DNA of 64,000 nt from Eubacteriales bacterium (GCA_045594745.1 JAZNZC010000153.1:4941-68940); one strand, 5' to 3'. Positions 50,454 to 63,744 are shown, counted from the first letter of the stretch. Made by a program: numbers and translations. The notes: a model not told the origin generated them from the letters alone.

Positions 50454-52121
50454 ATGCTAACGTCACTACATATTGAAAACATAGCTGTCATTCGACGGGC
50501 TGATTTAGACCTTGAAAAGGGGTTCTCGGCTCTGACGGGTGAAACGGGAGCAGGTAAATCGATGATCGTTGATAGCATCAACCTGCTCCTTGGCAATCGA
50601 ACCTCGCGAGAGATCATTCGCTCGGGCGAGACGAGTGCCATGGTCAGTGCTGTTTTTGAGGAACTTTCAGATGTCGCCATCGAGCAAATCCGCGAGATGG
50701 GCTTTGACGTTGAGGATGCCTCTGTGATGCTTTCGCGTACCATCACGATCGACGGTCGCTCACAAACGCGCCTGAACGGTCGCATCATCACACAAGCGAT
50801 ACAAAAAGAGATCGCACGGTTGCTCATCAGTATCCAAGGGCAAGCGGATAGTCAAAATCTCTTGCAAAAGAGCCGTCACCGCGAGCTTCTTGATGCATAC
50901 GGCACTTCAAAAGATGCACTTGCCGACTACCGAACCGCCTTTGAAGAGCTGAAAGCGTGTCGCAAAGAGGTACAGGCACTCTCACAGGATAGTGCCGAAA
51001 AGCTGCGTCTTTCCGAAATGCTCAAATACCAAATTGAAGATATCGACGCTATGAAGCTCAAGGATGGGGAAGAGGAAACGCTCATGCGTGAGCGCGACCG
51101 CCTTGCAAATCTTGAACGCATCAACAAGCAAACAGCCACGATTTGCCGTCTTTTGCGAGACTCCGAAAAGGGAAATGCTTACGATGTTATCCGCCGTGCA
51201 GAAACCTTGTTGCAGTCGTTGAACGGTCTTGTCGATGATACCGACACACTCTCTTCGCGTCTCGCCTTTGCCGCATCCGAAATCGAGGATGTTGCCGAGA
51301 CGGTTCGTTCTTATATGGATGATGATCACGAGGATCCCACCGCGCGCATCGACCGCATTGAAGGTCGCCTTGAGGGAATCGCAAAACTCAAACGCAAATA
51401 CGGCGCCGATGTTGCGGCTGTCCTTGCTTTTCGTGCAGATGCCGCCGCGCGATTGGATGCTTTAGAAACCTCTGACGAGCGTCTGTCTGCTTTGCAAAAG
51501 CAGGTTGAAAAGCTCACTAAAATTGCCGAAAAGCACGCAACCGTTTTGAGACAGAAACGAAAAGAAGCCGCAAAAGAAATTGTTAAGCAAGTTACAGAGT
51601 CGCTCTCTTTCTTGGATATGCCCAAGGTTCGCTTTGAAATTGCTATCAATCCCACCGACCTTTGTGAACACGGCGGCGACGATATTGAATTTTTGATTGC
51701 GACCAACCCCGGCGAGCCGCTAATGCCGCTTTCTAAAATTGCTTCGGGCGGTGAGCTTTCCCGTATTATGCTCGCGCTTCGCTCGGTTCTCAACGATCAC
51801 GACGGCGTTGATACTGTCATTTTTGATGAGATCGATACCGGCGTGTCCGGAAAAACCTCGCGAAAGATCGGCATTAAGCTCAGAGAGACCGCCAAAACGG
51901 GAACACAGGTGCTCTGTGTTACGCACTCCGCGCAGATCGCGTCTCTTGCCGATAATCACTATCGCATTACCAAACACGAGCGCGATGGCAGAGCAGAAAC
52001 CGATGTTCTGCTTCTCGGCGATGACGAACGCGTAGACGAAATTGCGCGTATTCTAGGTAGCATTGAGCCTACCGCCGCACAGCGCAACGCCGCGCGCGAG
52101 ATGATAGAGGAATACAGATAA
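50454..52121 (+). CDS. recN: DNA repair protein RecN
   Basis: SMC-like protein with Walker A GETGAGKS, a coiled-coil middle, the signature SGGELSR and Walker B VIFDEIDTG. Confidence 0.95.
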   Translation: MLTSLHIENIAVIRRADLDLEKGFSALTGETGAGKSMIVDSINLLLGNRTSREIIRSGETSAMVSAVFEELSDVAIEQIREMGFDVEDASVMLSRTITIDGRSQTRLNGRIITQAIQKEIARLLISIQGQADSQNLLQKSRHRELLDAYGTSKDALADYRTAFEELKACRKEVQALSQDSAEKLRLSEMLKYQIEDIDAMKLKDGEEETLMRERDRLANLERINKQTATICRLLRDSEKGNAYDVIRRAETLLQSLNGLVDDTDTLSSRLAFAASEIEDVAETVRSYMDDDHEDPTARIDRIEGRLEGIAKLKRKYGADVAAVLAFRADAAARLDALETSDERLSALQKQVEKLTKIAEKHATVLRQKRKEAAKEIVKQVTESLSFLDMPKVRFEIAINPTDLCEHGGDDIEFLIATNPGEPLMPLSKIASGGELSRIMLALRSVLNDHDGVDTVIFDEIDTGVSGKTSRKIGIKLRETAKTGTQVLCVTHSAQIASLADNHYRITKHERDGRAETDVLLLGDDERVDEIARILGSIEPTAAQRNAAREMIEEYR

Positions 52122-52122
52122 T

Positions 52123-52596
52123 ATGCAAAAAACAAACGCGATGCGGCGCTTGGATGCCGCAAAAATTCCTTATGAGGTGCTCGAATACGAGGTTGACGAA
52201 AATGACCTTTCGGGTATGCACATTGCAGAGCAGCTTGGATTTCCGCCCGAGCAAATGTTCAAAACACTTGTGGCAAAAGGAGATAAAACAGGCCCCTTGG
52301 TCTTTTGTATCCCTGTTGCCGAGGAGATCGATCTGCGCCGCGCCGCAAGTATTACGGGAAACAAACGCATTGAAATGATCCACGTTAAGGATCTTTTGGC
52401 TCTTACAGGTTACATCCGCGGTGGCGTTTCACCCATCGGGATGAAAAAGACTTTTCCCACATACATTCACGAAAGTGCTCTGCAGTTTGAGCGTATCACG
52501 GTCAGCTCCGGTACGCGTGGTGCACAGCTTTTGCTCCCACGAGCCGAACTTTTGCAGTTTTTGTGTGCAAAAACTGCTGATCTTACCGCAAAATAA
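52123..52596 (+). CDS. ybaK: Cys-tRNA(Pro)/Cys-tRNA(Cys) deacylase YbaK
   Basis: 157 aa. ...MFKTLV...GYIRGGVSPIG... is the YbaK/EbsC family. Confidence 0.85.
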   Translation: MQKTNAMRRLDAAKIPYEVLEYEVDENDLSGMHIAEQLGFPPEQMFKTLVAKGDKTGPLVFCIPVAEEIDLRRAASITGNKRIEMIHVKDLLALTGYIRGGVSPIGMKKTFPTYIHESALQFERITVSSGTRGAQLLLPRAELLQFLCAKTADLTAK

Positions 52597-52608
52597 TCAT
52601 ATTTATAC

Positions 52609-52637
52609 TTGAAACCCAACCAATTTTGTTGTATAAT
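52609..52637 (+). promoter_or_regulatory. Putative promoter of argS
   Basis: TTGAAA-17 nt-TATAAT. Confidence 0.55.
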
Positions 52638-52670
52638 ATTACAGTTGACTAAAAATAGAAAGGATTTTCT

Positions 52671-54404
52671 ATGCAAACCATTAAATTACGTATTGCCGAA
52701 AAAATCGCATCTGCAGTTCTCGCAATCAATGCCGAGGCACAACTCAATGCACAAGACGTTGCCGCTATGCTCGAGTATCCGCCCGATAGCAATATGGGCG
52801 ATATTGCATTTCCTTGCTTCCGTTTGAGCAAGGCTCTGCGCCGCTCTCCTGTGCAGATCGCAACTGCTCTTACAGAGCTTTTGAATGACTCCGCAATAGA
52901 TACCGTTGAAGCCGTTAACGGATATCTGAATATTAAAATCAGCAACACCTATCTTGCAGAGAGTGTGCTTCCGGAAATCCTTGTTAAAAAAGAGAATTAC
53001 GGTGCACAAGATTTTGGAAAAGGGAAAACCGTTGTTTTGGATTATTCCTCTCCCAATCTTGCAAAGCCCTTCCATATAGGGCATCTTGGTACTACCGTAA
53101 TCGGCCATTCTATCAAGAAGCTCCACGAGTTTGCAGGCTACCGTTGTGTAGGTATCAACTATATTGGTGACTGGGGTACGCAGTTTGGCAAACTGATTGT
53201 TGCTTATAAGAAGTGGGGCAATAAAGAAGAAGTAGAAAACGGCGGTGTAGATGCGTTGGTAGATTTGTATGTACGCATTAACAATGCTATTTCCGGTAAC
53301 GAGGAAATGGGTATTGTTGCTGATCCCTCGCTTGCAGACGAAGCAAGAGCCGAATTCCACAAAATGGAGATGGGTGACGAAGAAAATCTTGCTCTTTGGC
53401 GCTGGCTCGTAAAACTCTCCATTAAAGCAAACGATAAGATTTATCAACAGCTTGGTATCACCTTTGATAGCTATAAGGGTGAAAGCAGTTACACCGAGGA
53501 TATGCCCGCTCAAATTGAAAAGCTCAGAGAGCAGGGATTGCTCAAAATCGATGACGGAGCATCTTTGGTTGATTTGAGCGAATACGGAATGCCGCCGTGC
53601 TTGATTTTGAAGCGCGATGGTTCTTCTTTGTATCCTACCCGTGATATCGCCGCTGCTTATGATAGAAAGCAATTATACGATTTTGATAAATGCATTTACG
53701 TTACGAGCACCCAACAAATTCTTCACTTTAAGCAGTGGTATAAGGTTGTTGAATTGATGGGCTATGATTGGTATGATAAACTCGTTCACGTTCCTTATGG
53801 TACTGTATCCATTAACGGAGCTAAATTGGCTACCAGAACAGGCAACGTTGTTCTTCTGAAAGACCTTTTTGAAGCGGCAGTTGAAAAAGTAAAAGGTATT
53901 ATGGAAGAAAAGAACCCCAATCTTGAAAATAAAGAAGAAGTGGCCGAAGCCATTGGCGTTGGTGCTATCGTCTTCTATTATCTTACCAATAATCGTATTA
54001 AGGACATCAACTTCAGCCTTGAGGAAGCGCTCAGTTTTGAAGGCAACACAGGTCCTTACGTGCAATATACCTACGCACGCGCTTGCTCGGTATTGAATCG
54101 TGCGGGTGAGGTCGCAGATGTTCCTGTTCAAATTACGACCGAAGAAGAAGCCGCACTCGTTAAAACGCTGTGCCGCTTTGGTGAGAGAGTTTGCTCGGCG
54201 ATCGCCGATTATGAACCCAGCTACATTACACGCTTCATTCTCGACGTTGCCGCGGAATTCACCCGCTTCTATCACAACTGCACCATTCTCGGTGCTGACG
54301 ATCCTGCCATGCGCGCTTCTCGCGTAAAGTTGACCGAGGCTACCAAGATCGTTCTCGGCAACGCCTTTGATCTGATCTGTTTGAAAAAGACAGAAAAGGT
54401 CTGA
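52671..54404 (+). CDS. argS: Arginine--tRNA ligase
   Basis: The class I HIGH region reads SSPNLAKPFHIGHL. Also has an Arg_tRNA_synt_N domain and a DALR anticodon-binding C-terminus. 577 aa. Confidence 0.95.
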   Translation: MQTIKLRIAEKIASAVLAINAEAQLNAQDVAAMLEYPPDSNMGDIAFPCFRLSKALRRSPVQIATALTELLNDSAIDTVEAVNGYLNIKISNTYLAESVLPEILVKKENYGAQDFGKGKTVVLDYSSPNLAKPFHIGHLGTTVIGHSIKKLHEFAGYRCVGINYIGDWGTQFGKLIVAYKKWGNKEEVENGGVDALVDLYVRINNAISGNEEMGIVADPSLADEARAEFHKMEMGDEENLALWRWLVKLSIKANDKIYQQLGITFDSYKGESSYTEDMPAQIEKLREQGLLKIDDGASLVDLSEYGMPPCLILKRDGSSLYPTRDIAAAYDRKQLYDFDKCIYVTSTQQILHFKQWYKVVELMGYDWYDKLVHVPYGTVSINGAKLATRTGNVVLLKDLFEAAVEKVKGIMEEKNPNLENKEEVAEAIGVGAIVFYYLTNNRIKDINFSLEEALSFEGNTGPYVQYTYARACSVLNRAGEVADVPVQITTEEEAALVKTLCRFGERVCSAIADYEPSYITRFILDVAAEFTRFYHNCTILGADDPAMRASRVKLTEATKIVLGNAFDLICLKKTEKV

Positions 54405-54453
54405 TCACTTTGTTTTCAATAATTATTTCTATATATCGAAAGGATGAATCATT

Positions 54454-55185
54454 ATGTCCGGACATAGCAAATGGGCGAATATCAAGCACAAAAAAGAAAA
54501 GACCGATGCCGCAAGAGGTAAGATCTTTACCAAGATCGGCAAAGAGATCACCATCGCAGTCAAAGAGGGAGGCGGTGAGCCTGCTTCCAACTCCAAGCTG
54601 CGCGACCTGATCCAAAAGGCAAAAGCAAACAACGTTCCCAACGATAACATTGAGCGTTGCATCAAAAAGGCGCTCGGCGGCGGCGGTGAGAACTATGAGG
54701 AGGTATCCTACGAGGGTTACGGTCCCGCAGGTGTTGCTGTTATCGTTACTGCTACTACCGATAACCGCAACCGCACCGCAGGCAACGTACGCGCTTACTT
54801 CTCCAAATACCACGGCAACATGGGGCAGACCGGTTGCGTAGGCTATCTGTTCACAGATGTTGGTGAGATCGTTAACAACAACGAGGATGGCGACGTTGAC
54901 GAGGATAAATTGATGGAGCAAGCACTTGAGGCAGGTGCGGCAGACTTCAAAGCAGAGGGAGATGTTTTTATCATCACCACCGAGCCCGACGATGTTTATA
55001 ACATTCAAGAAGACCTCAAAGCCGCAGGATATGAGATTCTCTCGGCAGAAAAAACCAAGCAGGCATCCACCTCTGTTACGCTTGAGAGCGAAGATGACAT
55101 CAAGTTTATGAATCTTCTCATCGATAAGCTTGAAGAAGATGATGACGTTATGGATGTTTATCACAACTGGGAAAACTGCGATTGA
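54454..55185 (+). CDS. yebC: YebC/PmpR-family DNA-binding transcriptional regulator
   Basis: MSGHSKWANIKHKKEKTDAARGKIFTK... is the diagnostic N-terminus. Confidence 0.93.
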   Translation: MSGHSKWANIKHKKEKTDAARGKIFTKIGKEITIAVKEGGGEPASNSKLRDLIQKAKANNVPNDNIERCIKKALGGGGENYEEVSYEGYGPAGVAVIVTATTDNRNRTAGNVRAYFSKYHGNMGQTGCVGYLFTDVGEIVNNNEDGDVDEDKLMEQALEAGAADFKAEGDVFIITTEPDDVYNIQEDLKAAGYEILSAEKTKQASTSVTLESEDDIKFMNLLIDKLEEDDDVMDVYHNWENCD

Positions 55186-55213
55186 TTTTTTTGAAAAAAG
55201 TTTCAAAAAACTA

Positions 55214-55242
55214 TTGACAAACACTTCTTTGTGTGGTATACT
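55214..55242 (+). promoter_or_regulatory. Promoter of T-box unit 1
   Basis: TTGACA-17 nt-TATACT. Confidence 0.6.
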
Positions 55243-55249
55243 ACACGTA

Positions 55250-55520
55250 ATTTAGTAAAGGCTATGACGAAGAAGGTCGAGTAAGGGAGTCCACAGAGAG
55301 TCGGATAAGGTGTGAACCGATGACAAAATTACTCAAGACCCATCACTTCCGAGCCGGATGTTCGAAAGATATTTTATTAAGTAGAATTTCCCGTGATTGC
55401 TGCGTCAAGGCATAGGAATTGTTTGATTCCAAGAGTGGCGACTGTGTCGCAATTTGAGTGGTACCGCGAGTGTATTTTCACACCCGTCTCAAAGTTTGAG
55501 ACGGGTGTTTTATATTTTTG
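55250..55520 (+). promoter_or_regulatory. T-box riboswitch leader 1 (putative Ile, AUC specifier)
   Basis: Stem I has a GA/K-turn (AUGAC...CGA), an AGAGAG bulge and a GGUGUGA distal loop. The specifier-loop 3' side reads CAUCA directly before the CUUC helix. The T-box sequence AATTTGAGTGGTACCGCG is at 55451-55468. The terminator CACCCGTCTC-aaagtt-GAGACGGGTG plus T-run is at 55481-55511. Confidence 0.85.
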
Positions 55521-55538
55521 TAAAAGGAGGAAACCAAA

Positions 55539-57806
55539 ATGTCTACTTCATCATCCAACACTTTGCAGGAGGTCGCTCTGCGAATTCGCGAAATGCGCGA
55601 GATCTTTGATTTCAGTGTTGAAACGATGGCAGAAAAGACCGAAGTATCGGTAGAGGAATATTGCAGATATGAAAGCGGAGAGTTGGATTTTCCGTTCACC
55701 TTCATTCACAAATGTGCTCTTGCTTTTGGAATTGGTATGACCGATTTGCTCGAAGGTCGCAGCGCACATCTTTCGTCTTACACGGTCACCCGACGTGGGC
55801 AAGGACAACAGACCGCAAAGGAGGAAGGCATTGAGATTTCTAACCTTGCTCCTATGTTCCGCAAAAAGCTGGCTGAGCCTTATTGGGTTCACTACGAATA
55901 TAATCCCGATCTGCAAAATCGTCCTATTCACCTCACAAAGCACTCAGGTCAAGAGTTCGATATGGTGCTCAAGGGCAAGCTCAAGGTACAGATCGGTGAG
56001 AATGTCGAATACCTTAGTGAGGGCGATAGCATCTATTACAACAGCTCCACACCCCACGGTATGATCGCGATTGACGGTGAGGATTGTCTCTTTGTTGCAG
56101 TTGTTATGTCCGGTGAGGATGAGAAAGAGGATGTTATCAGAGACACACTCATTCCTATGTGTGCACCGCAAAAAGAACTTGTATGCGATCACTTTATTTC
56201 CACGGTCGAGGACGAAAACGGACTTTTGCAATCCATCGACTTCCACAACGACGATCAATTCAACTTTGGATTTGACGTTGTTGATGCTATCGCGCAAAAG
56301 GATCCCGAAAAGCTTGCGATGATCCATATTGCAAACGATAAGACCGAGCGTCGCTTTACCTTTAATGATATGAAGCGCAAATCAGCGCAATGTGCCAACT
56401 ATTTCAAATCCTTAGGCATCAAAAAAGGTGACCGTGTTATGCTTGTTCTCAAGCGTCACTATCAATTCTGGTTTGCTATTATTGGTCTGCATAAGCTTGG
56501 TGCGATCGTCATTCCCGCAACCAATCAGCTGCAGGCACACGATTTTGAATATCGCTTTGAAGCAGCAGATATCAGTGCGATCATTTGTACAGCGGATGGT
56601 GATGTGGCGCATCAAGTCGATCTTGCACAAGAGAAGTGCCCAATGCTGAAAACAAAGGTGCTTGTCGGCGGCAAGCGCGAAGGATGGAAGGATTTTGACG
56701 AGGAATTTGAACTCTTTAGCGCACATTTCTATCGCACCGAAGAGACTCCTTGCGGCGACGATCTGATGCTGATGTTCTTCACATCCGGCACCACAGGATA
56801 TCCCAAGATCGCGGCGCACACCTATAAATATCCTCTTGGTCACTTTGTTACCGCAAAGCACTGGCACGGTGTTAGTGACGGCAGCCTGCACTTTACCATT
56901 TCCGAAACGGGATGGGGAAAGGCTCTGTGGGGCAAGCTCTACGGTCAATGGCTGTGTGAGGGTGCAGTCTTTACCTACGATTTCGACCGCTTTGATGCGT
57001 CGGAGATCCTTCCGATGTTTGCAAAATACAACATTACAACCTTCTGTGCACCTCCCACGATGCTCCGCATGATGATCAAGCAGGATATCTCCAAATACGA
57101 TCTTTCTTCCATCAAGCATATGACAACCGCAGGTGAGGCACTCAATCCCGAGGTTTACCGTCAGTTTGAAAAGGCTACGGGACTTCAGATCATGGAAGGC
57201 TTTGGTCAGACCGAATTGACGCTTACCATTGCTAACCTGATCGGCGGCACGCACAAGCTCGGCTCTATGGGTAAGCCCATTCCGCTTTACGATGTTGACA
57301 TCGTCGATCCCGACGGCAATCCTGTGGCAGATGGCGAGACGGGAGAGATCATCGTTCGCACCGATAAGAAAGTACCTTGCGGACTCTTTGCAGGCTACTA
57401 TCGAAACGAAGAAAAGCCCGCCGAGGTTTGGCACGACGGTATGTACCACACAGGAGATACTGCGTGGAGAGATGAGGACGGCTTCTATTGGTACGTTGGT
57501 CGCGTAGATGACGTTATCAAGTCCTCGGGCTATCGCATTGGTCCCTTTGAAATCGAAAGCGTTATTATGGAGCTGCCTTACGTCCTTGAATGTGGCGTTT
57601 CTGCCGCTCCCGATGAGGTCAGTGGTCAGGTCGTTAAGGCATCTATCGTCCTTACAAAGGGAACTGAACCTACTGAGGAACTCAAAAAAGAAATTCAAAA
57701 CTACGTTAAGGAGCATACGGCACCTTACAAATATCCGCGTATCGTTGTTTTCCGCGATGAGCTTCCCAAAACCATCAGCGGAAAGATCCAGCGCAACAAG
57801 CTTTGA
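55539..57806 (+). CDS. Fusion protein: XRE-type HTH + cupin + AMP-forming acyl-CoA synthetase (copy 1)
   Basis: N-terminal HTH (SVETMAEKTEVSVEEYCRYESGE), cupin (GQEFDMVLKGKL...GDSIYYNSSTPHGM), then an ANL-family enzyme (MFFTSGTTGYPK, YHTGD, SSGYRIGPFEIES, PKTISGKIQRNKL). 755 aa. AAAGGAGG SD. Confidence 0.85.
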   Translation: MSTSSSNTLQEVALRIREMREIFDFSVETMAEKTEVSVEEYCRYESGELDFPFTFIHKCALAFGIGMTDLLEGRSAHLSSYTVTRRGQGQQTAKEEGIEISNLAPMFRKKLAEPYWVHYEYNPDLQNRPIHLTKHSGQEFDMVLKGKLKVQIGENVEYLSEGDSIYYNSSTPHGMIAIDGEDCLFVAVVMSGEDEKEDVIRDTLIPMCAPQKELVCDHFISTVEDENGLLQSIDFHNDDQFNFGFDVVDAIAQKDPEKLAMIHIANDKTERRFTFNDMKRKSAQCANYFKSLGIKKGDRVMLVLKRHYQFWFAIIGLHKLGAIVIPATNQLQAHDFEYRFEAADISAIICTADGDVAHQVDLAQEKCPMLKTKVLVGGKREGWKDFDEEFELFSAHFYRTEETPCGDDLMLMFFTSGTTGYPKIAAHTYKYPLGHFVTAKHWHGVSDGSLHFTISETGWGKALWGKLYGQWLCEGAVFTYDFDRFDASEILPMFAKYNITTFCAPPTMLRMMIKQDISKYDLSSIKHMTTAGEALNPEVYRQFEKATGLQIMEGFGQTELTLTIANLIGGTHKLGSMGKPIPLYDVDIVDPDGNPVADGETGEIIVRTDKKVPCGLFAGYYRNEEKPAEVWHDGMYHTGDTAWRDEDGFYWYVGRVDDVIKSSGYRIGPFEIESVIMELPYVLECGVSAAPDEVSGQVVKASIVLTKGTEPTEELKKEIQNYVKEHTAPYKYPRIVVFRDELPKTISGKIQRNKL

Positions 57807-57849
57807 TAAAACATTCTTATAATAAATGTTGGAAAAATTATAAAAGCTC

Positions 57850-57878
57850 TTGACAAATAACCAAAAGTGTGATACAAT
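57850..57878 (+). promoter_or_regulatory. Promoter of T-box unit 2
   Basis: TTGACA-17 nt-(TGA)TACAAT. Confidence 0.6.
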
Positions 57879-57884
57879 CTTAAT

Positions 57885-58165
57885 AATTTAGAAAGGCACT
57901 GACGAAGAGGGTGCCGACAAAGCGGTCTTTGCAGAGAAATGGCGGACGGTGCGAGCCATAGACCTCGGTCGGTATTTGTAGCTTCCGAGCCGAAGGGAAG
58001 AACGAGCGAAAGCTCCATTAGACCCCTTCCGTGATTGCTGCGTCAACGCATAGGAGCTGTCAGGCTCCAAGAGTGGCGACTATGTCGCAATTTGAGTGGT
58101 ACCGCGGGTGTTATTGCACTCGTCTCAAGGTTATTTTCACTTTGGGACGAGTGCATTTCTTGTTC
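57885..58165 (+). promoter_or_regulatory. T-box riboswitch leader 2 (putative Val, GUA specifier)
   Basis: Same architecture as leader 1, with compensatory changes in stem III. The specifier-loop 3' side reads UUUGUAG before CUUC. The T-box AATTTGAGTGGTACCGCG is at 58089-58106. The terminator GCACTCGTC...GACGAGTGC is at 58116-58154, followed by a T-rich tract. Confidence 0.85.
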
Positions 58166-58191: not shown

Positions 58192-60480
58192 ATGAAACAA
58201 ATGAGCGGATTGGATTTCAAGATCCAGGAAATGGCCGAGCGTATTCGTGAGTTGCGTGAGATCACGCGATATACTCCCGAGGAGATGGCGGCAAAGACCG
58301 ACGTAACAACCGAAGAATACCTTGCGTGTGAGAACGGTCAGAGCGACCTTAACTTTGCGTTTATCTACCGTTGTGCACTGGCTTTTGGCGTAAACGTCAC
58401 CGATATTATCGACGGTGTCAGCCCCAAGCTCAAGTCTTACACGGTCACGCGCAACGGCGCGGGACAGCGTATCGAGCAAGCGCACGGAATGACCTACTTC
58501 AATCTGGCGTATGCGTTCCAAAACCGTATTGCAGAGCCTTTGTACGTTCGCAGTGAGTACAACGAAGAAGCACAACACAAGGATATTGAATTGACCACCC
58601 ACGCGGGACAAGAGATCGATATCGTTATTTCGGGTAGTCTGATGGTTCAGGTCGGCTCTCACAAGGAGATCCTGCGTGCAGGTGACAGCATCTACTACGA
58701 TAGTAGCGCGCCTCACGGTATGATCGCCGTTGACGGTCAGGATTGCGAGTTTTATGCAATCGTTCTCAATCCCACGGGCGAACCTATCCCCGAGTTGACT
58801 CCCGCAAAGCTTGTCAAGGGAACAGCTATTCCAACAAAGGATACCAAGGAGCGCATCTATCAAAAGTTCATCGACGTTGTCGAGAACGAAAACGGTACTC
58901 CTACATCCATTCAATTCAAAAATACCGAGAACTTCAATTTTGCATTCGATCTTGTCGATGCACTTGCCGATAAAGAGCCGCAAAAGCTTGCAATGCTCCA
59001 TATTTCGCAAGATAAGACCGAGCGCAGATTTACTTTTAAGGATATCAAAAAAGCATCGGCACAATGTGCTAACTATTTCAAGTCACTTGGCATCAAAAAA
59101 GGCGACCGCGTTATGCTCGTTCTCAAGCGTCATTATCAGTTCTGGTTTGCGATGCTTGGTCTGAATAAGCTCGGTGCCATTGCTATTCCTGCTCCCAATC
59201 AGCTCCAGGAGCACGACTTTGAATATCGCTTCAAGGCAGCAGGGATCAGCACGATCCTTTGTACCTCGGACGGAGATACCGCACATCAAATTGAGCTTGC
59301 TGCTGCGACTTGTCCTGAGCTCAAGAACTTCTTGATCGTAAACGGTAAGCGCAAGGGCTGGAGAAGCTTCGATGAAGAATATCCGCTTTACAGCTCTCAT
59401 TACAACCGTGGCGAGGATGCTCCCGGCGGCAATGATCTGATGCTGATGTTCTTTACATCGGGAACAACGGGATACCCCAAGATAGCGGCGCACAATTATA
59501 AATATGCACTCGGACATTTCCACACCGCAAAATATTGGCACAACGCCGATCCCAACGGATTGCACTTTACTATTTCGGATACGGGCTGGGCAAAGGCAAT
59601 GTGGGGCAAGCTCTACGGCCAATGGCTGTGCGAAGCCGCAACCTTTGTTTACGATTTCGACCGCTTTGATGCATCTGAGATCCTGCCCATGTTTGCAAAA
59701 TACAACATCACGACCTTCTGCGCACCTCCCACGATGCTGCGTATGATGATCAAGCAGGATATCTCCAAATACGATCTTTCCTCGGTCAAGCATATGACAA
59801 CCGCAGGCGAGGCGCTTAACCCCGAGGTTTATCGTCAGTTTGAAAAGGCAACCGGACTCCAAATTCTTGAGGGCTTTGGCCAAACTGAGAGCACAATGAT
59901 CATTGGTAATCTTATAGGTGCTTCGCATAAGATCGGTTCGATGGGTAAGCCCGCACCGATCTACGATGTAGAGCTCGTCGATGTCGACGGAAATCCCGTA
60001 GCAGTTGGTGAAAGTGGTGAGATCGTTGTCAACGTCAAAAACGGAGCACCTTGCGGACTCTTTACCGGTTACTACCGCGACGAAGAAAAGACCGCCGAGG
60101 TTTGGCACGATGGCTACTATCACACCGGCGACGTTGCTTGGCGTGATGAGGACGGCTTCTATTGGTACGTCGGACGCGCTGATGACGTTATCAAATCTTC
60201 GGGTTACCGCATCGGTCCTTTTGAGATCGAAAGCGTTATTATGGAACTGCCTTACGTTCTTGAGTGCGGTGTTTCTGCCGCTCCCGACGAAGTCAGAGGA
60301 CAGATCGTAAAGGCTTCTATCGTTCTTACAAAGGGAACCGAGCCAACCGAAGAACTCAAAAAAGAAATTCAGAATTACGTTAAGGAGCACACAGCTCCCT
60401 ATAAATACCCCAGACTTGTGGTATTCCGTGATGAACTTCCCAAAACCACAAGTGGAAAAATTCAGAGGAACAAATTATGA
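58192..60480 (+). CDS. Fusion protein: XRE-type HTH + cupin + AMP-forming acyl-CoA synthetase (copy 2)
   Basis: 762-aa paralogue of 55539-57806 with the same three-domain order. The C-terminal two thirds are very similar at both protein and DNA level. Confidence 0.85.
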   Translation: MKQMSGLDFKIQEMAERIRELREITRYTPEEMAAKTDVTTEEYLACENGQSDLNFAFIYRCALAFGVNVTDIIDGVSPKLKSYTVTRNGAGQRIEQAHGMTYFNLAYAFQNRIAEPLYVRSEYNEEAQHKDIELTTHAGQEIDIVISGSLMVQVGSHKEILRAGDSIYYDSSAPHGMIAVDGQDCEFYAIVLNPTGEPIPELTPAKLVKGTAIPTKDTKERIYQKFIDVVENENGTPTSIQFKNTENFNFAFDLVDALADKEPQKLAMLHISQDKTERRFTFKDIKKASAQCANYFKSLGIKKGDRVMLVLKRHYQFWFAMLGLNKLGAIAIPAPNQLQEHDFEYRFKAAGISTILCTSDGDTAHQIELAAATCPELKNFLIVNGKRKGWRSFDEEYPLYSSHYNRGEDAPGGNDLMLMFFTSGTTGYPKIAAHNYKYALGHFHTAKYWHNADPNGLHFTISDTGWAKAMWGKLYGQWLCEAATFVYDFDRFDASEILPMFAKYNITTFCAPPTMLRMMIKQDISKYDLSSVKHMTTAGEALNPEVYRQFEKATGLQILEGFGQTESTMIIGNLIGASHKIGSMGKPAPIYDVELVDVDGNPVAVGESGEIVVNVKNGAPCGLFTGYYRDEEKTAEVWHDGYYHTGDVAWRDEDGFYWYVGRADDVIKSSGYRIGPFEIESVIMELPYVLECGVSAAPDEVRGQIVKASIVLTKGTEPTEELKKEIQNYVKEHTAPYKYPRLVVFRDELPKTTSGKIQRNKL

Positions 60481-61139
60481 TGAACAAACGCGTTTTGTTG
60501 CTGTGCGGACATTACGGTAGCGGCAAAACCAACATCGCCGTCAATCTGGCACAAGCGATCAAGAGGGAATACTCAACGGTGACTCTTGCCGACCTTGACA
60601 TCGTCAATCCTTATTTTCGTTCTAAGGACAGTGCTATTGAACTGGAAGAGGCGGGGATTCGACTCATTTGCTCCAATTATGCAAACAGTAACGTTGATAT
60701 TCCCGCGCTTCCGTCAGATCTCTACGCACTCACCGATGACCGCCGTATGAAAGCCATCATCGATGTGGGCGGCGACGATCGCGGTGCATTGGTTCTTGGC
60801 AGACTTGCTCCCGCAATTCTGTCAGAAAACGATTATGAGATGCTGATGGTGATCAACTGCTACCGACCGCTCACAAGAGATGCCGCATCCACGCTTGAGG
60901 TGATGCGCGAGATCGAGTATGCCGGCGGTATTCGCTTTACGGCATTGGTCAACAACTCCAATCTCGGAGCAGAGACCACCGCAGAGGATGTACTCGCATC
61001 GATGCGCTATGCCGATGAAGTGGCGGCTATGTCCAACCTGCCCGTCGTTATGACAACAGCAGACGAAAGATTGCAGAGTGAATTACAGGATAAGATTCCA
61101 AATCTTTTCCCACTCAAGCTGCAAAAAAAGATACAATAA
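60477..61139 (+). CDS. P-loop NTPase (MinD/ParA/CooC-like, deviant Walker A)
   Basis: LLLCGHYGSGKTNIAVNLA at the N-terminus. ATGA overlap with the upstream ligase gene. 220 aa. Confidence 0.6.
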   Translation: MMNKRVLLLCGHYGSGKTNIAVNLAQAIKREYSTVTLADLDIVNPYFRSKDSAIELEEAGIRLICSNYANSNVDIPALPSDLYALTDDRRMKAIIDVGGDDRGALVLGRLAPAILSENDYEMLMVINCYRPLTRDAASTLEVMREIEYAGGIRFTALVNNSNLGAETTAEDVLASMRYADEVAAMSNLPVVMTTADERLQSELQDKIPNLFPLKLQKKIQ

Positions 61140-61176: not shown

Positions 61177-61383
61177 ATGGCAAAATTAACGTTTTTGACC
61201 GATAATTGCAAGGGCTGCGGTCTGTGTGTGGACGCTTGCCCCAAAAAGGTGCTTCGTTTGGCACCCGATAAGATCAACAAAAAAGGACATCACCCCGTAG
61301 AGGCAGAAAACCCCGATGCTTGCATTGGCTGTGCATTCTGCGCTACGATGTGTCCCGATTGCATTATTACTGTTGAGAGGTGA
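61177..61383 (+). CDS. 4Fe-4S ferredoxin-type protein (delta subunit of 2-oxoacid:ferredoxin oxidoreductase)
   Basis: Two CxxCxxCxxxCP motifs (CKGCGLCVDACP, CIGCAFCATMCP). 68 aa from MAKLTF with an AAGGAG SD. Confidence 0.85.
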   Translation: MAKLTFLTDNCKGCGLCVDACPKKVLRLAPDKINKKGHHPVEAENPDACIGCAFCATMCPDCIITVER

Positions 61384-61388
61384 TCAAA

Positions 61389-62456
61389 ATGGCAGATAAA
61401 GTATTGATGAAAGGCAACGAAGCCATTGCCGAGGCCGCAATTCACGCAGGCTGCAGACATTATTTTGGCTATCCCATCACCCCTCAAACCGAGATCGCGG
61501 CTTATATGGCAAAAAAGATGCCCAAGATCGGCGGCACTTTTCTGCAAGCTGAAAGTGAGATCGCGGCGATCAATATGGTCTACGGTGTGGCATCCGCAGG
61601 ACACCGCGTTATGACCTCTTCCTCAAGCCCCGGAATCGCACTCAAGAGCGAAGGCCTTTCTTACCTCGCAGGCTCGGATCTGCCGTCTTTGGTCGTTAAC
61701 GTTCAACGCGGTGGTCCCGGACTTGGCGGTATTCAGCCCAGCCAATCTGACTATTTCCAAGCAACCAAGGCAGGCGGTCACGGCGACTTCCGTATGATCG
61801 TTCTCGCTCCCGCATCCGTTCAGGAGATGGCAGAGCTCACCGTCAAGGGCTTTGAACTTGCCGATACATACCGCATGACCGCTATGATCCTTGCCGACGG
61901 TACGATGGGGCAGATGATGGAGCCTGTGGCACTTGACGACCTTGTTGTCAAGCCTGCACCTGCAAAGCCTTGGGCGACTACCGGCACCAAGATGCAACGC
62001 GCTCACAATATTACTAATTCGCTCTCTCTCGTTCCCGAAGAGCTCGAAAAGCTGAATTTCGCTCGCTATGAGCGTTACCGCACCATTGAGGAAAACGAGG
62101 TCATGTACGAGGAATATATGATGGACGATGCAGAGATCTGTATTGCCGCTTTCGGTATTGCCGCACGTGTTTCCAAAAACGCGATCAATGAGGCGAGAAA
62201 AGCGGGCATTAAGGTTGGTATGATCCGTCCCATCACGCTCTGGCCCTTCCCGAAGGAAGTATTCCGTCGCGCCGCAGATAAGGTCAACAGCTTTATTTCT
62301 GTTGAGCTTTCTATGGGGCAGATGATCGAGGACGTTCGCCTTGCAACCGAATGCAAAAAGCCTGTAATGCTTTGCAATCGTGCAGGCGGTATGATCCCGT
62401 CTCCCGATCAAGTACTCGAAGCAATTAAGAACGCCGCGAAAGGAGGAGAGAACTAA
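61389..62456 (+). CDS. vorB: 2-oxoacid:ferredoxin oxidoreductase alpha subunit (VorB-like, 3-methyl-2-oxobutanoate type)
   Basis: MADKVLMKGNEAIAEAAIHAGCRHYFGYPITPQTEI is the typical N-terminus of the VOR/KOR alpha subunit. Substrate assignment comes from context only. Confidence 0.8.
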   Translation: MADKVLMKGNEAIAEAAIHAGCRHYFGYPITPQTEIAAYMAKKMPKIGGTFLQAESEIAAINMVYGVASAGHRVMTSSSSPGIALKSEGLSYLAGSDLPSLVVNVQRGGPGLGGIQPSQSDYFQATKAGGHGDFRMIVLAPASVQEMAELTVKGFELADTYRMTAMILADGTMGQMMEPVALDDLVVKPAPAKPWATTGTKMQRAHNITNSLSLVPEELEKLNFARYERYRTIEENEVMYEEYMMDDAEICIAAFGIAARVSKNAINEARKAGIKVGMIRPITLWPFPKEVFRRAADKVNSFISVELSMGQMIEDVRLATECKKPVMLCNRAGGMIPSPDQVLEAIKNAAKGGEN

Positions 62457-63214
62457 TGGTTGTATTTAAGAAACCCCACGCTCTGACCGATGCACCCTTC
62501 CATTATTGCCCCGGTTGCACCCACGGTATCATTCACCGTTTGGTAGCCGAGGTCATTGACGAGCTCGGCATTGAGGGCAGAACCATCGGTATTGCTCCCG
62601 TTGGTTGCTCGGTTATGGCTTATAACTACTTTAACTGTGATATGATCGAGGCCGCACACGGTCGCGCACCTGCTGTTGCTACCGGTGTTAAGCGCGCCAA
62701 CCCCGAGGAACATATCGTTTTCACCTACCAAGGCGACGGTGACCTCGCATCTATCGGCATGGCAGAAACCGTTCACGCCGCCGCAAGAAACGAAAATATC
62801 ACCATTATCTTTATTAACAATGCAATTTACGGTATGACCGGCGGTCAGATGGCGCCCACATCGCTTCCCGGACAGGTTACACAGACCTCTCCTTACGGTC
62901 GCGACACCAACCACTGCGGGTTCCCGATTCGTGTATGCGAAATGCTCTCCGAGCTTGAGGGCCCCGAATATCTCGCCCGTGTTACCGTTAATAACGTAAA
63001 GAATGTAAATAACGCTAAAAAAGCGATCAAAAAGGCATTCCAAAATCAGATCGATGGCAAAGGCTTCTCTTTGGTCGAAGTACTTTCCACCTGTCCTACC
63101 AACTGGGGTATGACTCCTCAGAAGGCTCTGCAATGGATCGATGAGAAAATGATCCCTTATTATCCGCTTGGCGTTTATAAGGATAGAAGTGGGGAGGAGG
63201 AATCGGCAAAATGA
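62456..63214 (+). CDS. 2-oxoacid:ferredoxin oxidoreductase beta subunit (TPP-binding)
   Basis: HYCPGCTHG..., GDGD... and IFINNAIYGMTGGQ TPP-binding motifs. Start/stop overlaps the alpha subunit gene. Confidence 0.88.
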   Translation: MVVFKKPHALTDAPFHYCPGCTHGIIHRLVAEVIDELGIEGRTIGIAPVGCSVMAYNYFNCDMIEAAHGRAPAVATGVKRANPEEHIVFTYQGDGDLASIGMAETVHAAARNENITIIFINNAIYGMTGGQMAPTSLPGQVTQTSPYGRDTNHCGFPIRVCEMLSELEGPEYLARVTVNNVKNVNNAKKAIKKAFQNQIDGKGFSLVEVLSTCPTNWGMTPQKALQWIDEKMIPYYPLGVYKDRSGEEESAK

Positions 63215-63744
63215 GTACAAAGCAAATGCTGTTTTCCGGCTTTGGCGGACAGGGAATTCTGTTTGCCGGTAAATTTATCGCTTACAAAGGACTGATGGAG
63301 GAAAAGCAAGTCAGTTGGCTTCCGTCCTACGGTCCCGAAATGCGCGGTGGTACTGCAAGTTGTAGCGTCATCGTCAGCGACGAGCCTGTTGGCTCCCCCA
63401 TTGTATCCAACCCCGATATCCTGATCGCTATGAACCTGCCGTCTCTTGATAAATTCGAGTCGACTGTTGTTCCCGGCGGAATGATTTTTGCTGACTCCAC
63501 TCTTATCGAGCGCAAGGTTGAACGCGATGATGTTAAGGTGTTCTACATTCCCGCGACACAACTCGCAAGCGACAATGGCACGCCCACACTCGCAAACATG
63601 ATCATCGTTGGTAAGGTGCTCAAGGAAATTGGCGACTACAACGAAGAAAACATCACCGCTGCACTTAAAAAAGTTATTTCTGCAAAGCGCGCGGATATGC
63701 TTGATATCAACCTTGGCGCTATGCGTCTTGGTGCCCAAAACTAA
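63211..63744 (+). CDS. 2-oxoacid:ferredoxin oxidoreductase gamma subunit
   Basis: [14 protein letters not shown]...YGPEMRGG is the gamma (POR/KOR) subunit family. 4-nt overlap with the beta subunit gene. Confidence 0.88.

Follow-up and report, generated by a model that had tools for sequence, protein, structure and literature searches.

Tandem T-box leaders with isoleucine and valine specifier codons precede paired acyl-CoA ligase genes in a predicted branched-chain acid salvage locus

The 64,000-nucleotide stretch of Eubacteriales bacterium DNA analyzed here (GCA_045594745.1, JAZNZC010000153.1:4941-68940; hereafter the window) carries between positions 55000 and 58400 of the plus strand two closely similar and independent transcription units, each made up of a near-consensus promoter of the sigma-70 type, a leader of ~260 nucleotides (nt) and a large open reading frame (Table 1). 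The two proteins, termed here ligase I and ligase V, are 70% identical and are both fusions of HTH_19, Cupin_2, AMP-binding and AMP-binding_C domains. Behind them lie a gene for a P-loop nucleoside triphosphatase (NTPase) and the genes for a four-subunit 2-oxoacid:ferredoxin oxidoreductase. An initial annotation had proposed that the leaders are paralogous T-boxes with different specifier codons, AUC (Ile) in leader 1 and GUA (Val) in leader 2. Sequence analysis demonstrates both the T-box identity of the leaders and these codon assignments.

Alignment to the Rfam T-box covariance model RF00230 gave 86.1 bits (E = 1.4e-18) for positions 55255-55494 and 69.4 bits (E = 2.7e-14) for positions 57890-58130, with the model covered end to end (1-219) in each case. 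Among the further Rfam matches of low score in this region were a PyrG leader, caiA and a miRNA; all were rejected as terminator hairpins or chance matches. The model consensus GAAa-uuc-a-CCcu lies against AAGAccc-AUC-A-CUUC in leader 1 and UAUUu-GUA-G-CUUC in leader 2, and the specifiers therefore land exactly on the triplets proposed. The initial coordinates and sequences also held, including the codon followed by a purine: in both leaders one purine (AUC-A and GUA-G) separates the triplet from the 3' strand of the lower helix, CUUC-C-GA-GCC. Both registers agree with the TBDB rule, by which the specifier is found at bulge positions 2-4, as numbered from the 3' end, and one base parts it from the helix. 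GUA departs from the tendency of specifiers to carry C in the third position.

For the comparison with relatives, one genome per GTDB species was scanned, yielding at least 599 candidate stretches, of which at least 586 were confirmed and 80 loci were kept. These derive from Oscillospiraceae, Acutalibacteraceae, Ruminococcus and allied metagenome-assembled genomes from rumen, gut and faeces, together with the isolate Erysipelotrichaceae bacterium NK3D112; the four-domain architecture of the 755-residue ligase I recurs in thousands of related proteins. With the two window leaders as the basis of a profile, 131 homologous leaders were detected in the 80 loci, 2 of them fragments without Stem I. 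The remaining 129 and the window's own two make up 131 leaders with a readable Stem I, and the specifier is AUC in 70 of these, GUA in 54, GUC in 5 and atypical in 2, both from the same genome. Among the 68 distinct Stem I sequences of the Ile class the three AUC columns are invariant while the flanks vary, the 5' base being C in 49, U in 16, A in 2 and G in 1 and the 3' base A in 38, C in 22 and G in 8, a pattern that bears out the earlier view that the agreement exceeds chance. Val-class triplets always begin with GU and end in A or C, so that the sole change within the triplet, from GUA to GUC, is synonymous for valine; the preceding base is mostly U, also G or C (CGGUAG, CCGUAG).

These flanking bases bear on the other registers that could be read. 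CAU in leader 1, although present in 49 of the 68 Ile-class sequences, is ruled out because AUC is preceded by U, A or G in the other 19, and UGU in leader 2 is ruled out because G or C precedes GUA in some leaders. Moving the Val-class register by +1 yields the stop triplets UAG and UAA. The discriminator bases of tRNA-His (C73) and tRNA-Cys (U73) do not match a UGGU bulge, which counts further against the CAU and UGU readings.

The codon classes are mirrored in the proteins. In a neighbor-joining tree of 120 full-length ligases a single split parts all 49 proteins behind Val leaders from all 70 behind Ile leaders, with ligase I in the Ile-leader clade, and the nearest neighbors are of the same class for 119 of the 120; codon class and downstream paralogue clade coincide perfectly. 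The model register, the codons of the relatives and this clade split all support the proposal that each unit would sense a different amino acid. The order Ile T-box, ligase, Val T-box, ligase, P-loop NTPase, delta, alpha, beta, gamma is found in full in 50 of the 80 loci; contig ends cut it in some of the others, and no locus shows it reversed. In a few genomes (loci L016, L044, L053, L060 and L072) only an Ile unit stands directly before the oxidoreductase genes.

Comparative folding with RNAalifold (68 Ile-class and 44 Val-class distinct Stem I sequences) recovered a K-turn stem, the GAAG/CUUC helix, a helix above the bulge and a distal helix, and left the specifier bulge unpaired. In leader 1 these correspond to the K-turn GGC-UAU-GA/GA-GCC, the lower helix GAAG/CUUC and the specifier bulge, followed by the covarying helix GGUC/GACC, the AGAGA bulge and the GGUGUGA distal loop. 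Both partners change in 17 of 20 Stem I pairs of the Ile class and in 13 of 19 of the Val class; the helix directly above the bulge appears as GGUC/GACC, GGCU/AGCC, GGUA/UACC and others, and the K-turn GGC-NNN-GA...GA-GCC is invariant or covarying (first pair G-C to A-U) throughout both sets. The tRNA-elbow platform, made by the AG bulge and the distal loop, is present in conserved columns, as CAGAGAG and GGUGUGA in leader 1 and CAGAGAA and GGUGCGA in leader 2. Present as well are the Stem II S-turn (CGAA...AGUAG in leader 1, GAA...UUAGA in leader 2) and the Stem IIA/B pseudoknot, whose IIB helix UGCU/GGCA is double-changed in 3 of 4 pairs.

In the 3' half of the leader, compared over 112 leaders, 95.1% of cells are paired as against 26-49% with the partners slid, and none of 500 shuffles matched the covariation. 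Compensatory changes occur in the IIB helix, in an extra hairpin and in Stem III. The extra hairpin, with double changes in 5 of 6 pairs and pairing in 97.7% of cells, is the element that had been described as Stem III from the exchange of GGAAUU...GAUUCC for GGAGCU...GGCUCC; the compensatory change is real and family-wide, and only the name was in error. Stem III proper has the pattern GCGAC-NNN-GUCGC. A T-box Stem III carries RRRxG...AA flanks (PMC7583486), and the 3' domain here reads GAGUG-GCGAC...GUCGC-AA-UUUGAGUGGUACCGCG, that is, Stem III with its flanks, then the T-box sequence and a 7-nt bulge. The bulge is UGGUACC in both window leaders and in 128 of the 129 classified leaders, and because UGGU pairs with the 3' ACCA end of tRNA, a discriminator A would be implied, as had been suggested. 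The strand CGUCUCA belongs to both the antiterminator and the intrinsic terminator of each leader, so the two structures compete, and the terminator folds have z scores against shuffles of -5.3 (leader 1) and -6.4 (leader 2). The predicted mode of control is transcription attenuation.

Table 1. Features of the twin T-box units and of the genes that follow them in the window
Feature	Position	Strand	Basis or remark
Promoter, unit 1	55214-55242	+	TTGACA, 17-nt spacer, TATACT, TG extension; 11/12 consensus matches
T-box leader 1 (Ile), including terminator and U tract	55255-55519	+	RF00230; centroid fold -21.8 kcal/mol
Stem I, leader 1	55260-55355	+	RF00230 alignment; comparative covariation
Specifier AUC (Ile), followed by A55345	55342-55344	+	RF00230 register; 70/70 Ile-class leaders
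Extra hairpin GGAAUU-GUUU-GAUUCC, leader 1, between Stem IIA/B and Stem III	55415-55430	+	Covariation
Stem III, leader 1, GCGAC-UGU-GUCGC, flanks GAGUG and AA	55438-55450	+	RF00230 and covariation
T-box bulge UGGUACC, leader 1	55459-55465	+	Sequence and RF00230
Terminator, leader 1, 13 pairs	55480-55508	+	Terminator prediction
Ligase I, 755 residues, HTH_19 + Cupin_2 + AMP-binding acyl-CoA synthetase; predicted 2-methylbutyrate-CoA ligase	55539-57806	+	
Promoter, unit 2	57850-57878	+	TTGACA, 17-nt spacer, TACAAT, TG extension; 11/12 consensus matches
T-box leader 2 (Val), including terminator and U-rich tail	57890-58165	+	RF00230; fold -30.3 kcal/mol
Specifier GUA (Val), followed by G57981	57978-57980	+	RF00230 register; Val-class leaders GUA 54, GUC 5
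Extra hairpin GGAGCU-GUCA-GGCUCC, leader 2	58053-58068	+	Covariation
Stem III, leader 2, GCGAC-UAU-GUCGC	58076-58088	+	RF00230 and covariation
T-box bulge UGGUACC, leader 2	58097-58103	+	Sequence and RF00230
Terminator, leader 2, 17 pairs	58115-58155	+	Terminator prediction
Ligase V, 762 residues, HTH_19 + Cupin_2 + AMP-binding acyl-CoA synthetase; predicted isobutyrate-CoA ligase	58192-60480	+	
P-loop NTPase (CbiA/ParA/Mrp-like)	60477-61139	+	Overlaps ligase V stop codon; conserved cluster member
Four-subunit 2-oxoacid:ferredoxin oxidoreductase	61177-63744	+	Family matches; gene order kept in related loci
Oxidoreductase delta (2x[4Fe-4S])	61177-61383	+	
Oxidoreductase alpha	61380-62456	+	
Oxidoreductase beta	62456-63214	+	
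Oxidoreductase gamma	63211-63744	+	

The catalytic halves of both ligases match the AMP-forming ANL core (PF00501 and PF13193 with E = 2.6e-66 and 8.4e-21 in ligase I, and 8.8e-62 and 4.2e-21 in ligase V). The best NCBIfam model for both is MbcS (NF047394; 435.5 and 433.9 bits, respectively), and the best solved structure for the catalytic domains is that of MacsMa (PDB 3ETC, E = 4.7e-184). MbcS selectively activates 2-methylbutyrate and isobutyrate (PMC10026030), and MacsMa prefers 2-methylbutyrate (PMC10455477). As the scores lie well under the 850-bit cut-off of the MbcS model, we file the ligases as relatives of MbcS rather than as MbcS. The alpha subunit of the oxidoreductase is of the VorB type, with 542.5 bits to NCBIfam PRK07119 against a cut-off of 399; the delta reading frame is ferredoxin-like with two CxxCxxCxxxCP motifs, beta is thiamine pyrophosphate-binding and gamma is a POR gamma subunit. 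With a VorB-type alpha over the curated cut-off and delta, beta and gamma all present, we assign the enzyme to the ketoisovalerate:ferredoxin oxidoreductases (VOR). These matches of alpha to VorB and of the ligases to MbcS and MacsMa agree with the earlier suggestion that the specifier codons fit the downstream pathway. The P-loop NTPase (220 residues, weak CbiA/ParA/Mrp-like matches) overlaps ligase V by ATGA, an arrangement of translational coupling, and nearly all loci keep its gene between those for the ligases and VOR; the protein may serve the oxidoreductase as an Fe-S or assembly factor.

We consider it very probable that the two T-box units turn on salvage of 2-methylbutyrate or isobutyrate to isoleucine or valine in response to uncharged tRNA-Ile or tRNA-Val; tRNA binding, the direction of flux and the division of substrates between the ligases are parts of this model that we infer. 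By analogy with the established T-box mechanism, uncharged tRNA-Ile(GAU) or tRNA-Val(UAC) would pair through its anticodon with the specifier and through its free ACCA end with UGGU, which would stabilize the antiterminator and let RNA polymerase read into the gene; charged tRNA would be unable to do so, and the terminator would form. Judged from gene content, ligase I would convert 2-methylbutyrate to 2-methylbutyryl-CoA and ligase V isobutyrate to isobutyryl-CoA. The oxidoreductase, run reductively, would then turn these acyl-CoAs into 2-oxo-3-methylvalerate and 2-oxoisovalerate by reductive carboxylation, and transamination of the former would give isoleucine and of the latter valine, so that each unit would switch on salvage of the acid matching the scarce amino acid. 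We favor salvage because an AMP-forming ligase runs in the activating direction and a T-box induces when its cognate amino acid is scarce. Rumen organisms use branched volatile fatty acids for isoleucine and leucine synthesis, and rumen physiology has long recognized the conversion of isobutyrate to valine, 2-methylbutyrate to isoleucine and isovalerate to leucine (PMC10658910, PMC7356843).

Several observations weigh against this model. Both leaders score below the RF00230 gathering score of 93 bits, a curated cut-off and not a structural feature, and a default Rfam scan of the whole window at this threshold reported nothing, the leaders appearing only in E-value mode. We attribute the low scores to the atypical specifier region and the inserted hairpin, and on the evidence of the alignments both are clear T-box leaders that standard annotation would miss. 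Stem I is without the AGUA/GAA S-turn (loop E) above the specifier: the corresponding model positions are covarying Watson-Crick pairs of the GGUC/GACC type in the Ile class and AG(G/U) opposite UUUGUAG in the Val class, and the Ile-class specifier bulge has 2 nt on its 5' side and 5 nt on its 3' side. As this S-turn is listed as a typical feature of Stem I (PMC7583486), typical and not universal, we regard its absence as a variant trait. In 22 of the 68 Ile-class sequences C replaces the usual purine 3' of the specifier, and one genome has the atypical specifier loops mentioned above. A scan of the window and of 60 related loci (L001-L060) found no gene for tRNA-Ile or tRNA-Val, so the model assumes that anticodon and discriminator match. 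The ligases, whose substrates are predicted, miss the MbcS equivalog cut-off by a wide margin (435 versus 850 bits), and a single catalytic-domain residue cleanly parts the two clades. The VOR genes lie behind the Val leader only, which leaves a rise in their expression under isoleucine starvation alone unexplained.

It is possible, if unlikely, that the ligases share a broad substrate range and that the two leaders exert OR-type control over one activity, with no partition of substrates. The two catalytic domains are indeed very similar, MbcS takes both acids (PMC10026030), and a single Ile-controlled ligase directly precedes the oxidoreductase in the five loci named above. Twelve alignment columns cleanly part Ile-type from Val-type proteins, and 11 of these are in the helix-turn-helix (HTH)-cupin module (ligase I residues 9, 52, 58, 71, 76, 95, 98, 100, 110, 115 and 125). 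The twelfth, Gly-460 in ligase I (56916-56918) and Ala-467 in ligase V (59590-59592), falls in a GW-x-K motif, which reads SETGW-G-K in all Ile-type and SDTGW-A-K in all Val-type proteins. We take this motif to align with the GW-V310-T311 acyl-pocket segment of acetyl-CoA synthetase, a correspondence for which a literature search gave no confirmation; if it is right, Gly would suit a C5 acid and Ala a C4 acid. Against a shared activity, the two clades stay apart across ~25% within-clade divergence, with the leader class always matching.

That the T-boxes are correctly read but the ligases supply branched acyl-CoA primers for membrane fatty acids, with isoleucine or valine shortage serving as a proxy, appears improbable to us. 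MbcS, the best NCBIfam match, does have this role, supplying primers for branched fatty acids in S. aureus (PMC10026030, PMC11167679); the ligases here, however, are tightly and consistently linked to a VorB-type oxidoreductase, an enzyme unneeded for primers and needed to convert acyl-CoA to 2-oxoacid, and surveyed T-boxes govern aminoacyl-tRNA synthetase genes, amino acid biosynthesis and amino acid transport (PMC3766115). Most improbable of all is that other tRNAs are sensed, with leader 1 read as CAU (His) or UCA (Ser) and leader 2 as UGU (Cys) or UAG: the Ile-class +1 triplets UCA, UCC and UCG are all serine codons, since the base after AUC varies among A, C and G, and the G73-CCA end of a tRNA-Ser(CGA) in a related genome (L045) argues only weakly against a serine register, since it could wobble with the U of UGGU, but the A of AUC is invariant, the homologous Val-class register consists of stops, the covariance model and the TBDB rule both select AUC and GUA, and the downstream genes are branched-chain specific.

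The clustering of clade-separating residues suggests that the HTH-cupin module, ~230 N-terminal residues encoded at 55539-56230 in ligase I and 58192-58900 in ligase V, reads a unit-specific signal or operator. Because 11 of the 12 columns lie there, the fusions might be bifunctional enzyme-regulators resembling BirA, a ligase and repressor in one, in which case expression would need both uncharged tRNA, sensed by the T-box, and a second, unit-specific ligand (such as the acid or the amino acid), sensed by HTH-cupin; we regard this as a speculative proposal that is probably not correct in full. The N-terminal 206 residues had no PDB sequence match at E <= 0.01. The unit 1 promoter pattern TTGACAA...GTGnTAtAAT is conserved across 67 Ile-class upstream regions and the unit 2 promoter across 43 Val-class regions. 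In these regions conservation is confined to the hexamers, the extended -10 and phased A-tracts upstream of the -35, and no conserved operator palindrome for the HTH domain was found. A terminator search of the window region found none between the first ligase gene and promoter 2. The phased A-tracts of the Ile-class promoters have the form GAAAAA-N4-CAAAAA. Just upstream of the unit 1 -35 lies an A/T-only near-palindrome of the same kind, TTTTTTGAAAAAAGTTTCAAAAAA (55186-55213), which could be a UP-element or a protein site.

The leaders share their domain order and motifs with the transcriptional T-boxes of Firmicutes (RF00230; B. subtilis tyrS, ileS, valS and the Leu-specific ilv-leu), namely the K-turn, the specifier bulge, the AGAGA and GGUGNRA T-loops, the Stem II S-turn, the IIA/B pseudoknot with an F-box-like GCGUNA, Stem III with RRRxG...AA, UGGNACC and a competing terminator, and by analogy they would share the logic of amino acid-specific induction on tRNA uncharging. 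They differ from them in scoring below the gathering cut-off, in the missing Stem I S-turn, in the 5-nt bulge N-AUC-N, in the extra covarying hairpin and, among the Ile-class relatives, in the frequent C 3' of the specifier. The target also differs, being an HTH-cupin-acyl-CoA synthetase and not an aminoacyl-tRNA synthetase, a classical ilv gene or a transporter. T-box duplication with a change of specificity is described in comparative surveys cited in PMC3766115, and here likewise leader and gene would have been duplicated together before the specifier changed; unlike those cases, the copies have remained side by side, with the Ile-then-Val order fixed in many genera.

The ligases have the AMP-forming ANL-superfamily catalytic domain in common with MbcS and MacsMa, both of which prefer 2-methylbutyrate with MbcS also accepting isobutyrate; unlike them they carry the N-terminal HTH_19 and Cupin_2 module, stand under T-box control and are linked to a VOR operon. 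The oxidoreductase resembles known VOR in its delta, alpha, beta and gamma subunits and VorB-type alpha, and is distinguished by its tRNA-sensing control and by an operon that it shares with a P-loop protein and dedicated AMP-forming ligases. The literature searched (including the TBDB preprint, Wels 2008, Sun 2013 and a T-box review) yielded no account of acyl-CoA synthetase or VOR genes under T-box control; the survey of Vitreschak et al. 2008 or TBDB may list related leaders. The mechanism is a known one, and the leaders are new members, with variant traits, of a known riboswitch class, with a target undescribed in that literature.

The specifier codons act as built-in function labels, "Ile" and "Val", for two clades of a widespread family, which has at least 586 matches in species-level gut and rumen Clostridia genomes and is named only "cupin domain-containing" or "AMP-binding protein". 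The locus offers a concrete predicted gene set for the branched-acid route in Firmicutes (acid-specific ligases, VOR and a P-loop helper) and points to that route being switched on by amino acid starvation. It also adds a large, well-sampled T-box subfamily that has no Stem I S-turn, often has no 3' purine and is missed at standard Rfam thresholds. We see its main value in the function it predicts for a large unannotated protein family and in the gene-level access it gives to branched fatty acid assimilation.

Some relatives depart from the common arrangement. The genome with atypical specifiers, Clostridiales bacterium W3P12.070 (L075), has a P-loop/VOR operon with its own T-box (leaders at L075:3042-3292 and L075:8451-8702). 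Its VOR leader and first ligase leader have remodelled specifier bulges, with AUC followed by AAAU or UGAAU before the helix; by the Rfam model the first leader reads AUC and the second is ambiguous (GAA-U). In some loci (L039, L049, L056, L057, L070 and L073) the ligases have no leader detectable by the family profile, the leaders being either too divergent or lost together with this control. Seven loci, but not the window, carry a third T-box, which is more divergent and has a Leu specifier adjoining the lower helix (CUG-G, or CUC-G/A). It lies at L035:1483-5657 and L074:1464-5628, the two loci in which the downstream genes were examined, and at L079:718-939, L054:1370-1619, L059:1355-1601, L044:10163-10382 and L053:10988-11171. 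In L035 and L074 this T-box is followed by a LeuA-like gene (HMGL-like and LeuA_dimer) and by a gene for an 825-residue fusion protein, in which a xylose-isomerase-like TIM barrel (AP_endonuc_2) is joined to an AMP-binding ligase; the Ile unit comes directly after. The third unit may be a Leu/isovalerate counterpart; if the ligase fusions were also bifunctional, the three units would make up a three-channel, riboswitch-labelled route from branched fatty acids to isoleucine, valine and leucine.

Upstream of unit 1, same-strand genes at 50454-55185 encode a RecN/SMC-like ATPase, a YbaK-type protein, which is a free-standing aminoacyl-tRNA editing domain (52123-52596), arginyl-tRNA synthetase (52671-54404) and a YebC-family protein. 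The argS-YebC neighborhood is retained in the closest relatives (L001, L002 and L004).

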